Shown here one piece after another: positions 42,499 to 46,916 of a DNA stretch of 64,000 nt (its first letter is position 1; every line of letters begins with the position of its first letter). This DNA is from Scenedesmus sp. PABB004. Its lineage: Eukaryota. The DNA lies in assembly GCA_014905635.1 (NCBI GenBank), contig JABVCE010000004.1, positions 1 to 64,000 on the forward strand, given 5' to 3'. Position numbers and translations under genes: made by a program. The notes beneath the pieces are model-generated. The model had not been told where the DNA came from, made no database searches, and was given only the letters and a program-made list of their open reading frames with translations.

Positions 42499-45400
42499 TC
42501 ACGCGCGCCGGCTCGAGCTCGCCTGCTTTGCCGCCGCCTCGAGCGCCGCGCGAGCACGCACGCGGCGGCAGACCTCGGCGGACAGCGTCTCGCGCCTGCC
42601 CGCGTTGGCGCCCTGCCCGCCGCTGCCGAGCCTGAGCTCCACACCCAGCCGCGGCGCGTCGGGCTCCGCGCACCGCGCGACCAGGCGCACCCACGCGCGG
42701 TGGCACTGGTCAACGGTGTGCTGCTCCAGCACGTGCTGCGGCAGCGCCCAGCGGCCCGCCAGCTCCCAGCCCTCGCGCGCCTCCAGCACAGCGGTGTTGA
42801 GCTCCGCCCTCCACGGCGCATGCTCGCCCTCGCCGCGCTTGCGCTTGGCGTTGCTCGCCGTGCCGCCGATGCTGTGGCAGCGCGCGCAGCAGCTGCACGT
42901 GCATGGGCACCCCGGGGGGCACGCGCACGCCGCCCCGGGCAGCGAGGGCTCCGCCGCCGCCGCCGCCGCCGCCGCCGCCGCCGCCGCCGCCGCCGCCGCC
43001 GCCGCCGCCGCCGCCGCCGCCGCCGCCGCCGCCGCCGCCGCCGCCGCGCCGCCGCCGCCGCCGCCGCCGCCGCCGCCGCCGCCGCCGCCGCCGCCGCCGC
43101 CGCCGCCGCCGCCGCGCCGCCGCCGCCGCCGCCGCCGCCGCCGCCGCCGCCGCCGCCGCCGCCGCCGCCGCCGCCGCCGCCGCCGCCGCCGCCGCCGCCG
43201 CCGCCGCCGCCGCCGCCGCCGCCGCCGCCGCCGCCGCCGCCGCCGCCGCCGCCGCCGCCGCCGCCGCCGCCGCCGCCGCCGCCGCCGCCGCCGCCGCCGC
43301 CGCCGCCGCCGCCGCCGCCGCCGCCGCCGCCGCCGCCGCCGCCGCCGCCGCCGCCGCCGCCGCCGCCGCCGCCGCCGCCGCCGCCGCCGCCGCCGCCGCC
43401 GCCGCCGCCCGCCGCCGCCGCCGCCGCCGCCGCCGCCGCCGCCGCCGCCGCCGCCGCCGCCGCCGCCGCCGCCGCCGCCGCCGCCGCCGCCTGCTGCGTG
43501 GCTGCACACGGGCACAGCAGCTCGCGCGCGGCGACGCAGCTGGAGCAGGGGCAGCGGCAGTTGGGGTCGGCGGGCCCCGTCCTGCAGCTGCAGCTGGCAC
43601 ACTCCCAGGCAGGCGTGCCGCCGGCGCCCGTCAGCATGCCCATGCGAAGCTGGAACGTCGCGGGCAGGCCATCGGGGCCGGCTGCCGCTGCAAATGCGGC
43701 CTTGGCGGCCGCGAGCATGGCGGGCAGCTGCTCCGGCAGGCCCGTGGCGCTGCCCGCCGCGAGGGCGGCAGCTGCAAACACGCCCTTCGCACGTTTGGCC
43801 AGCGGCGCAGCCGCCGCGTGCACGGCGCCGCTGTAGTTGCGTCGTACTTGCGCGCGAAAAGGTCAGCAGAGCGCTCACCCTCCTCCAGGGCTGCCAGCAG
43901 CGGCTCGCTGCAGCGCGCCACGTCCAATGGCAGCAGCACGACAGGCGCGCCGCTGGCCCGCGCTGCCGTGTGGAAGTGGCGCAGCTGCTCGTTCGCAGCG
44001 CCGCGATCAACGCCGGTGGCCAGCGGGCCCAGCGCCGCCGCCACGTAGTCGGGCAGGGCGCCGTCCGCGGCGGCGGGCACCGCGTCGAGCACGCGGCTGG
44101 GGTGCAGCAGCACCAGCAGCGCCACGCCCAGCTGCCGCGCGAGCTCGGCCGCCTTGCGCAGCACGCCCGACCGCCGGCTGAGCCGGCAGTCCGTCGTGAG
44201 CAGGACGGCCGCCCGCGCCGGCGGCGGCGGCTGAAGGTCGGACCCAGCGCTGGCGCTGGCGCTGGCGCTGCTGCCGTCGTCGCGGCCGTGCAGCTCCTGC
44301 AGCTCCCGCAGCAGGCGCATCAGTCCGTTCTCCTCCGCTGGCACTGCCGCCGACACGCCGTCGCAAACGCGCGGCTCGACGCGCCCGGCCGCCTCGCCCC
44401 TGCGCGGCAGCGTGAGGCGGCGGCAGCAGCGTTAGGGCGAGCTGCCGACGGTGGCGGCGCGGCGAGGCCCCTTGCCGGCGGTGCGCTCGTGAGCGCTCGC
44501 ATCACGTTGACGCACACCCGATCACTGCCTGCACGCGCGCTCACCCGATCACTGCCTGCATGAAGCTCTGCATGCGGCCCAGCGCGAGGGAGCGCATGTC
44601 CTGCGCGCTCGCGCCGCCGCCAACCTGCAGTGCGCAGCCGCTCGGGTGGCTTTGGGACACGCGCGCAAACGCGATGACACGCGGCACCCGCTGCAGCACG
44701 CTCGCCAGCAGGCCGCTGATGCTGCCGACGGGCCCGCCAGCGGTGGGCGCCAGAACGCTCTGCGCTGACACGCGCTGCATGTAGGCAGTGTAGCGCGCGG
44801 CGGCGCCAAGCTGCGCCGCCGTCTCCCAGCAGGCCCCGTCCAGCACGCTGGCGACCTTCAGCGTGAAGTCCTGCTGGCTGCTGGTGGAAACGCTGCTGGC
44901 GGCGCCGGCGGCGCTCACGCTGCCCGCCTGGCCACCAGCGTCCAGCCGCAGCAGCGGCAGGGGCGCGAGCCGGCCGATGCCGGCCGCCGCCACCGCCACG
45001 CCCTTGGCTGCAAACGCGGCGATGATGGGTATGAAGTCGCTGCCCTTGCGCGCGATGCGGTCGGGCGACGCCACCAGCACCGTGTCGCCGGGCTGCACCT
45101 GCGCCAGCAGGCCGGTGACAGCCGTGCGGCTGGGCGGGCGGTGCTCGTAGACGGAGCACACCTCGACGAGCAGCGAGATGGGCGGCGGCGGCAAGCCGGC
45201 GCATGCTAGTGCGCGCGCTGCCGCCGCGCTGCAGGTGGCGACCTGGCCACCAAGGCTGTCCCTGAGGGCGCCCTGGCCGTAGAGGGACGACTGCCGCACC
45301 CAGATGTGGAGGGTGGATGCGCTGCCGTCGCCGTCGTCGCCGCCGGTGCCAGCGCCGGCGACGAGCGCTGCGCCCTCGCTGCGCTTAGCCTGCAGCAGCT

Positions 45401-46916
45401 CGTGCAGCTCTGCGAGCTCGACGTCGCTCATGGTGCTGCCCAGGTCGTCCATGAAGCTCGACAGCTCGCCGGCGCCACCGGCGTCCGGCGCCACCAGCGT
45501 CCAGTCGCCGGCCTCGGCCCCCGCTGCCGCCACGCGCGTCAGGGCCGTTGTCTTGAGGGCGCCGCGCAGCAGCCGCGCCAGCACCTGCAAGCGCCATGAG
45601 AGTGCCGAGCCGGCCTGGCGCATGCTCGCCGTCCACGGCGCCGCGTCCGCGCCGACCCAGCCAGGCTGCTGCAGCGCCCTCAGCAGCGCGGTCGCTGGCG
45701 TGCCGCCGTGCTCCACCAGCAGCAGCTGCACTGAGTGGCGCCCCGCGACGCTGTCGCGCACCACCATGGCGGCGGCGAGCTCAGCGCCTGCGCGCTGCAG
45801 CGCCTTAGCGGCCGCTGTCGCAGAAAACTGGGTCGCCAGCGCGCCGCTGCTCGTCGGCGCAAACGCCAGCAGCAGGAACTCGCGCTCGCTGAAGCGCCGC
45901 GCGAGCGTGAGCTCGCCAGCCCGCCACGACGCGCCCAGGTCCAGCAGCGGCAGCGCCGCCCCCGCGCGCAGCCGCACGCTCGACGCGCCGGCGCGGATCG
46001 CGTCCACCCACGCCGCGGCGCGCCAGGGCAGGCTGCCAAGCTCGCCGCTCGCCGCGGCCGCCGGCGCCACGTGCTGGCGCAGCCAGTCCCACGCCGCCGC
46101 GGGGTCATGCACGCGCCCCAGCGCCGTCGCGGCGGCGCGGCCGCCCGCGCGCAGCGCCGCCAGCACGCGGTGCGCGCCGTCGAGCGCGAGGCGGGGGCGC
46201 CCGTGCTCGCCCACCAGCGGCAGCAGCGTCAGCTGCGTCACCGCAGCCGCGAACGCGTCGGCCACCAGCAGCCCGCCGCGCAGCGCCGCGGTGTCGGCAT
46301 CGGTGTACAGCGGGAACATGACCTGCAGCGCCGCGTCCATGCCTGTCAACCAGGCCGTCCACGCAGACTGCGTGTCCAGCAGGGCGCGCTCGGCCTCGTC
46401 GCCCGCTTCAAAGTCCAGCGACTCCCCCGGCTCCAGGCATAGCACCGCGGTGGAGAGCGGCATGTCGCCGGGCTGCGCCGTGGCGACCAGGGCCGCGTTG
46501 CCCACGGCCGCGCCCCCGATCACCGGGGCCGCGGGCGCGACCGCCAGGGCGCGCGGGAGGGCGCCGGGGGCGCACTCGGGGCCCAGCAGGTGCACGACCC
46601 GGTCGCACACGCTCGCCACGTTGACGTAGCTGAGCGCGCCGCTGCCCGCGGCCGCCAGCTCTGCGCCGAGCGCGGCCGCGAGCGCCGCGCCGGAGGGCGG
46701 GGCGTAGAACCAGGGCCCGTCCCACGCCGACTGACGCACGACCAGCAGCCGGGTGCCGCAGTGCGGCAAGACCACGCCGCAAAACGAGCTCAGCATGCCT
46801 AGGTCGCTGCTCCGCTGGCGCGGCGGCGCCGCGCCGCCGCCGGCAATGCCGCGGGCACGGTCGACGGCGGCCGGCAGCGCGGCCCTGACGAGGTCTTCAT
46901 GTGTGCGAACGGCCAT
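42499..46916 (-). CDS. Large protein with two tandem serine-recombinase (resolvase-like) domains and a Cys-rich C-terminus; one intron (44544-44400); apparent frameshifts at about 43835 and in the GCC tract
   Basis: Domain 1: IWVRQSS...SLGGQ...EVCS...SRTAVTGLLAQVQPGDTVLVASPDRIARKGSDFIPIIAAFAAKGVAV. Domain 2: VIAFARVSQ...|...DGVSA...NGLMRLL...VLLTTDCRLSRRSGVLRKAAELARQLGVAL. Confidence 0.75.
42951..43490. repeat. (GCC)n microsatellite, about 540 bp
   Basis: Pure GCC run with three phase slips. Confidence 0.97.

Follow-up and report, generated by a model that had tools for sequence, protein, structure and literature searches.

The window analysed here comprises the first 64,000 nucleotides of contig JABVCE010000004.1 of the chlorophycean alga Scenedesmus sp. 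PABB004 (assembly GCA_014905635.1). On its minus strand lies a gene whose product carries a serine-recombinase catalytic domain (domain 1) and, further along the same chain, a segment that is probably a diverged second copy of it (domain 2). The public protein of this locus is HT031_001838, a 'hypothetical protein' of 1151 amino acids (P0003 below), which is 100% identical to the protein encoded in the window, belongs to a contig of 1.79 Mb and has PF00239 precomputed on its record. An initial annotation, made from the letters of the DNA, had proposed a spliced eukaryotic gene with two tandem serine-recombinase domains, and all of its motif strings are found where it placed them when the minus strand is read: IWVRQSS with its first Ser codon, TCG, at 45290-45288 and DRIAR at 45062-45048 for the first domain, then FARVS with its Ser codon TCC at 44657-44655, DGVSA at 44362-44348 and CRLSR at 44188-44174 for the second. 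The N-terminal extension of about 530 residues that it described ahead of the first domain is present as well, and its total length of 'over 1200 aa' has to be corrected to the 1151 of the public protein. The positions of the features are collected in Table 1.

Table 1. The recombinase gene, its parts and its neighbours, in coordinates of the window
Feature	Position	Strand	Remarks
Whole gene, public model	42499..46916	-	ATG at 46916, stop codon 42501-42499; placed by tblastn of P0003 onto the window; downstream of ~43600 predicted only
N-terminal region	45330..46916	-	residues 1-529; conserved in P0004, P0007, P0014, P0016 and P0019
Domain 1, catalytic core	44922..45320	-	residues ~533-665; R541-x-S543, E585, S588, R597, D619-R620-x-x-R623
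Codon of Ser543, predicted nucleophile of domain 1	45288..45290	-	minus-strand reading
Long helix after domain 1, E-helix equivalent	44751..44885	-	residues ~678-722; family motif W-A-x-S-x-Q-H-G ... Q-H-A-x-M
Domain 2, first half	44545..44681	-	residues ~746-791; strand 1 with R752-x-S754, then S-L-x-R781-Q782
Intron 1	44400..44544	-	145 nt, GT 44544-44543, AG 44401-44400, phase 2, CTAAC 44435-44431; exon 1 ends at 44545
Donor region of intron 1, 27-nt tandem duplication	44538-44560 and 44511-44533	-	two candidate donors, the second behind an in-frame TGA
Exon 2	43879..44399	-	second half of domain 2 (D804-G-V-S807, C862-R-L-S-R866, G-V) and conserved stretch to ~residue 922
Intron 2, public model	43772..43878	-	107 nt, GT..AG; model prediction
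Intron 3, public model, doubtful	42896..43602 (about)	-	contains (CCG)n at 42951-43491
Perfect palindrome	47413-47478	.	66 bp = 33 + 33 nt, no spacer; 19-nt GC-rich dyad unit; between the ATG of the gene (~500 bp away) and tRNA-Val
tRNA-Val(AAC) genes, two	37251-37347 and 47573-47670	-	97-98 nt each (room for an intron), 95% identical, similarity confined to the tRNA
DTW domain gene	31.5-32.8 kb		neighbour, Pfam scan
LCAT-like gene	33-35.8 kb		neighbour, Pfam scan
GPN-loop ATP_bind_1 GTPase gene	38.2-41.2 kb		neighbour, Pfam scan
NmrA-like gene	50-51.3 kb		neighbour, Pfam scan
Tmemb_14 gene	59.2-60.3 kb		neighbour, Pfam scan
B3 gene	62.5-64 kb		neighbour, Pfam scan

The locus holds a genuine nuclear gene, interrupted by introns, with a product of about 1150 amino acids, the 3' third of the model being predicted. 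The GT-AG intron with its CTAAC element that interrupts the second motif set in the initial annotation is the same as intron 1 of the public gene model. Exon 1 holds a 912-codon open frame, which stops at the end of the exon on an in-frame TGA contained in the GTGAG donor. One relative, P0011, is open through the position of intron 1, and since its protein alignment with P0003 continues unbroken over the junction, the junction is supported at the protein level. Contigs from two freshwater-metagenome runs (X1 and X2) are short near-identical pieces (150-333 bp) that correspond to exons 1 and 2 and the upstream flank, with an 11-nt insertion at 44505, within intron 1, in an X2 contig; the apparent joints in the contigs of both runs were disregarded, their sides being merely 20-24 nt long and located in repeats rich in guanine and cytosine (GC).

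At the position of the 'frameshift at about 43835' suggested earlier, the public model has a second GT-AG intron (43878-43772). The annotated intron 3 encloses a (CCG)n tract of ~180 units (~540 bp), and reading through this tract would yield long poly-Ala, poly-Gly or poly-Arg runs. The Cys-rich tail of the initial annotation, located after residue ~1020, arises only when intron 3 is read through and is absent under the public model; if real, it would presumably recall the zinc ribbon of large serine recombinases. A second copy of part of the annotated last exon lies past the stop codon (42557-42731 versus 42216-42376, 81-86% identity, ~341-355 bp downstream), which adds to the doubt on the 3' end of the model. 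No TGTAA motif, which we take to be the chlorophycean polyadenylation signal, was found on the minus strand in the 2 kb downstream of the annotated stop. The GC content of the gene region is 75-82%, like its surroundings, and 66-82% over the window.

Analysis of domain 1, together with the following E helix (residues ~533-722), places it firmly in the serine-recombinase superfamily. With a curated cut-off of 23.3 bits, PF00239 scores 27.7 bits on the exon-1 open reading frame (ORF) and 29.6 bits on P0003; it is matched at E <= 0.01 by 21 of 24 family members, the best being P0005 (E 3.9e-11, profile positions 4-100, nucleophile serine included). Searching the PDB with the family profile returned Gin, Tn3, gamma-delta and Sin at E 5e-6 to 2e-2. 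Aligned with hhalign to a set of six canonical small recombinases, domain 1 gives a probability of 95.8% (E 8e-9), and in this register R597 and D619-R620-x-x-R623 fall on the canonical R and D-R-x-x-R.

In an AlphaFold model covering residues 500-945, domain 1 has a predicted local distance difference test (pLDDT) score of ~90, and the top Foldseek rows for this model are Sin, Tn3 resolvase and gamma-delta resolvase. With VIA-align, Sin (3pkz_G) superimposes with a Z-score of 14.1 and a root-mean-square deviation (rmsd) of 2.8 Å over 121 of its 122 residues (model residues 36-196). Serine recombinases fill the first 31 places, one of them under the bare title 'putative DNA binding protein', before Z falls to 6.3. 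The predicted E helix is 45 residues long (model residues 179-223), the VIA alignments to Sin and gamma-delta resolvase reaching model residues 196-204. Within the family, the catalytic positions are conserved as follows: R541 in 11/12, S543 in 8/12, S588 and R597 each in 20/20, R620 in 23/23 and R623 in 22/23 of the aligned relatives; several of the four exceptions at S543 are probably due to upstream read-through of automatically called ORFs. Judged by sequence and model, domain 1 is a complete resolvase/invertase-type catalytic domain with an E helix, for which activity is predicted.

The relatives used in these comparisons were collected with HMMER, which searched 1.84 billion representatives exhaustively and found 27 proteins at E <= 1e-3. 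Identity between the family clusters is about 30-40%, and the relatives resemble algal nuclear proteins in their high content of Ala, Gly and Gln. P0004 (877 amino acids) covers the entire exon 1 including the N-terminal region, and three other relatives match the N-terminal region only; P0004 and P0007, whose source contigs (3.1 and 3.8 kb) belong to JGI metagenomes, are also the only proteins matched by the family profile among longer proteins. Seventeen relatives reach the stretch R781-G791, where 11 end exactly at the last residue of exon 1, two end one residue later and four read on. These 13 protein ends within one residue of the exon-1 boundary suggest that the phase-2 intron is conserved in the family.

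The family-specific motif was absent from the prokaryote genome contigs scanned, the IMG/VR viral contigs gave just ordinary phage resolvases (six loci, 31-39% identity over 46-72 residues), two scans of metagenome contigs gave no relative, and a tblastn search of plasmids with domain 1 gave no match. A word-based protein search with the core region found P0003 itself only, and with exon 2 alone found nothing. The N-terminal region matches no Pfam family, no PDB sequence and no protein-atlas entry.

Domain 2 (residues ~745-900) is split by intron 1, and its first half is the better covered by relatives. R752 and S754 are each kept in 18/19 relatives, R781 in 16/16 and Q782 in 17/18; the R and S of R-x-S are invariant in all 18 sequences of alignment A5. 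In the second half, C862-R-L-S-R866 of P0003 corresponds to D-R-L-C-R in P0011. The AlphaFold model arranges the strands and helices of domain 2 in the same order as those of domain 1, with the serine after strand 1, D-G-x-S after strand 2 and C-R-L-S-R after strand 3. A hidden Markov model (HMM) of domain 1 scores 5.5 bits on domain 2 of P0003, a value reached by 6 of 1000 shuffles, and 9.2 bits on domain 2 of P0011, reached by none of 1000, and in both proteins the match falls on the same HMM columns, 79-114. Direct comparison of the two domains with hhalign gives E 0.008 over a short stretch of 33 columns. Against the canonical recombinases, hhalign places FARVSQSHPS of domain 2 on YVRVSTNDQN, with a score reached by just 1 of 150 column shuffles. 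In addition, tblastn with domain 1 of P0028 matches domain 2 in the window at 44206-44030 (E 7e-4), P0011 contains a second weak PF00239 stretch (308-329, against SR-HMM columns 52-73), and a protein-atlas feature search with residues 735-925, rated as a lead only, returns a top cluster that is 98% PF00239 (score 0.86).

Several results weigh against a recombinase origin of this segment, and some of them would fit a reading in which domain 1 alone is derived from a recombinase, the second segment being an unrelated alpha/beta domain in a protein with large accessory parts, with an R-x-S and an R-L-S-R that are convergent or due to chance. Domain 2 has no Pfam match, even when the exon-2 ORF is searched to E <= 10, and P0003 shows a single PF00239 stretch. 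The hhalign match to the canonical recombinases covers 10 columns only, with a probability of 1% and E 0.05, and global mode gives no alignment. The pLDDT of domain 2 in the two-domain model is just 45-83, and the structures aligning to the second half of this model are generic alpha/beta folds (solute-binding proteins, KaiC, chelatases) at Z ~6; every recombinase chain in the two-domain structure search aligned to domain 1, which is neutral as regards domain 2. The stand-alone model of domain 2 of P0011 (~203-384) was poor, with a pLDDT of 52 and no Foldseek match at E <= 0.001. Domain 2 of P0003 is also without an evident equivalent of R45, and the equivalent of D67 is Cys (both positions in what we take to be gamma-delta resolvase numbering), and the second half of the domain is covered by two sequences only, P0003 and P0011.

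An unrelated second domain nevertheless seems doubtful. It would leave to coincidence two separate short matches that fall in the right order and register and beat their shuffles, the near-complete retention of R-x-S among relatives, the shared strand-helix order, the PF00239 cluster at the top of the atlas search and the second PF00239 stretch of P0011. Domain 2 is thus best regarded as a probable diverged duplicate of the catalytic domain. Because R-x-S and the paired arginines are kept in both halves across relatives, both halves appear to be under selection for catalysis. The two resolvase-type domains of the initial annotation, which had proposed to examine both segments with Pfam, AlphaFold and Foldseek, accordingly differ in standing: the first has the Pfam family, the PDB profile matches and the resolvase fold, and the second has moderate support, with neither a PF00239 nor a fold-level match.

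Comparison with the known systems shows that domain 1 belongs to the serine recombinase superfamily and that the whole protein fails the defining features of both IS607-type and large serine recombinases. With the small serine recombinases (gamma-delta/Tn3 resolvase, Sin, Gin/Hin invertases), domain 1 shares the catalytic fold and the E helix (Z 11-14, rmsd 2.3-3.3 Å), PF00239, and the catalytic set R-x-S, D/E..S, R and D-R-x-x-R. Unlike them, the algal protein has no C-terminal helix-turn-helix detected by Pfam, is ~6 times longer, has a 530-residue N-terminal region and a probable second, diverged catalytic domain in the same chain, and is encoded by a nuclear, eukaryotic, intron-containing gene. 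The large serine recombinases (phiC31, Bxb1 and TP901-1 integrases) resemble it in size, and their catalytic domains match at Z 10.4-11.9. However, neither PF07508 (Recombinase) nor the PF13408 zinc ribbon was detected after the algal catalytic domain, and the extra mass of the algal protein is N-terminal or consists of the second catalytic-like domain. More generally, the Pfam search of all protein parts found no helix-turn-helix, recombinase domain or zinc ribbon that would make a recognisable DNA-binding domain.

The serine recombinases described in eukaryotes are essentially the small IS607-type TnpA proteins encoded beside TnpB/Fanzor2, also in giant viruses, according to PMC3627910. The algal protein is likewise a serine recombinase in eukaryotic DNA with accessory sequence N-terminal to the catalytic domain, and TnpA of the IS607-type ISC1926 superimposes on the algal model with Z 10.7 and an rmsd of 2.1 Å over 98 residues. 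In contrast to TnpA, it has no MerR-like helix-turn-helix family detected by Pfam and, at 1151 amino acids, is not small but far larger, with probable tandem catalytic domains, introns and an apparently low copy number. The partner gene of IS607 elements was not found either, as the initial annotation had observed: a scan of the 110 ORFs with 180 or more amino acids at positions 27,000-64,000, which leaves shorter or spliced ORFs and bases 1-27,000 outside, revealed no TnpB/Fanzor and no transposase or integrase family.

This brings into question whether the gene belongs to a mobile element, as the initial annotation had suggested. In that case the gene would encode the enzyme, a transposase or integrase, with which an undescribed DNA element of eukaryotes moves by serine recombination, and the window would contain a single, perhaps old, insertion whose ends go unrecognised. 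The appeal of this reading is that mobile elements encode the overwhelming majority of serine recombinases elsewhere, those described in eukaryotes being of the IS607 type (PMC3627910), that divergence within the family is deep, and that a perfect 66-bp palindrome is present upstream of the gene; an adjoining ORF with a weak zf-RVT-like match (E 0.48) hints at other mobile DNA close by. On the other hand, host genes lie immediately on either side, and self-BLAST and a repeat search found no terminal repeats, att-like repeats or target duplications bracketing 42.5-46.9 kb. Since IS607-like elements are also described, in PMC3627910, as having neither terminal repeats nor target duplications, missing repeats do not exclude mobility. 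Further points against an element are that tblastn finds a single copy of the family in the 64-kb window, that few sequences fall in the 90% clusters of P0004 (one), P0007 (three) and P0003 (one, on a single contig), that the public annotation did not mask the gene as a repeat, and that the apparently conserved intron position fits long residence in nuclear genomes. We therefore consider an element recombinase unlikely; of the two options offered by the initial annotation, a pseudo-dimeric recombinase of an undescribed element or a domesticated recombinase, the domesticated one fits better. Judging from one locus and the cluster sizes, the gene appears to be a low-copy resident, domesticated or of old horizontal origin, and not the recombinase of an identifiable mobile element.

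The surroundings of the gene contain several repeats of their own. The palindrome folds far better than expected (z = -8.35, with none of 200 shuffles folding as well), and a hairpin, a site bound by a protein or an artefact of assembly are all conceivable; a tie to the recombinase gene is conjecture. The two tRNA-Val genes, 10.3 kb apart, were considered as att sites and rejected: both are full length, they resemble each other only within the tRNA, and they also enclose a host gene of essential type, that of the GPN-loop GTPase. A 781-bp direct repeat with 99.6% identity (36375-37155 and 41056-41836) flanks a tRNA-Val gene and the GPN-loop GTPase gene, its second copy ending ~660 bp downstream of the stop codon of the recombinase gene; a recent duplication or gene conversion may have produced it, or it may be an artefact of the assembly. 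Beside the upstream tRNA, a 464-codon open frame on the plus strand (47715-49106) contains a C-x-C...H-x-W-x-C-P stretch, to which the non-significant zf-RVT match mentioned above belongs, and may be a decayed piece of a retroelement. Further direct repeats are dispersed over the window (38361-38890 / 59572-60092, 90%; 1-524 / 2378-2906, 96%), and a 197-bp satellite array occupies 11500-27234 with ~80 copies (81-100% matches), a GC content of 0.69 and positive GC skew.

It could also be asked whether the gene still encodes an enzyme. A decaying or non-catalytic relic of an old, horizontally acquired recombinase gene, that is, a pseudo-enzyme or a mis-annotated pseudogene, would account for the 540-bp CCG repeat and the duplicated terminal piece in the 3' part, for the Cys at the D67 equivalent of domain 2 and for the retention of S543 in just 8 of 12 relatives. 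Such decay is hard to reconcile with the 912-codon open frame of exon 1 and with catalytic Arg and Ser residues conserved across sequences of ~30% identity, which argues for purifying selection, and several of the S543 exceptions probably have the trivial origin given above; we regard a relic as quite improbable. Bacterial or viral contamination or mis-assembly, which the typically prokaryotic or viral distribution of the domain family might bring to mind, can be dismissed, as the initial annotation had already done, given the 1.79-Mb contig with eukaryotic neighbour genes, the spliceosomal-type introns, a GC content that matches the surroundings, and a family-specific motif found in no prokaryote genome scanned, with only ordinary phage resolvases in IMG/VR.

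Taken together, the evidence seems to favor, with moderate confidence, a low-copy resident or domesticated tandem serine recombinase made up of a ~530-residue N-terminal region, domain 1 and a diverged domain 2. Because both halves keep the nucleophile and the arginines, a covalently linked pseudo-dimer would be the most economical reading of this architecture. In such a protein, each serine would attack one DNA strand and form a covalent 5'-phosphoserine link, in a resolvase-like manner, and at a single crossover site the pair of linked domains would stand in for the dimer that recombinases normally form. A synapse, with its four active sites, would then be built from two molecules, and DNA recognition would need to be provided by the N-terminal region or the predicted C-terminal tail.

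A literature search, with supplements and subscription journals outside its scope, brought up no report of algal nuclei with tandem or giant serine recombinases. As far as can be read from sequence, a tandem serine-recombinase architecture, with domain 2 as a probable copy, appears to be undescribed for eukaryotes. More speculatively, and as a tentative proposal that we would not yet expect to hold, green algae may harbour giant, eukaryote-specific, single-chain 'pseudo-dimer' serine recombinases that have two active sites per polypeptide and still cut and rejoin nuclear DNA, either as the integrase of an unrecognised class of element or as a domesticated enzyme for programmed site-specific rearrangements; the palindrome upstream of the gene might be a substrate. 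Serine recombinases underlie many genome-engineering tools, and a conserved, intron-bearing nuclear family with two catalytic domains and a large N-terminal region would give the enzyme class a new architecture and a natural experiment in the covalent linking of a recombinase dimer; it also raises the question of the use of site-specific recombination in the algal nucleus.

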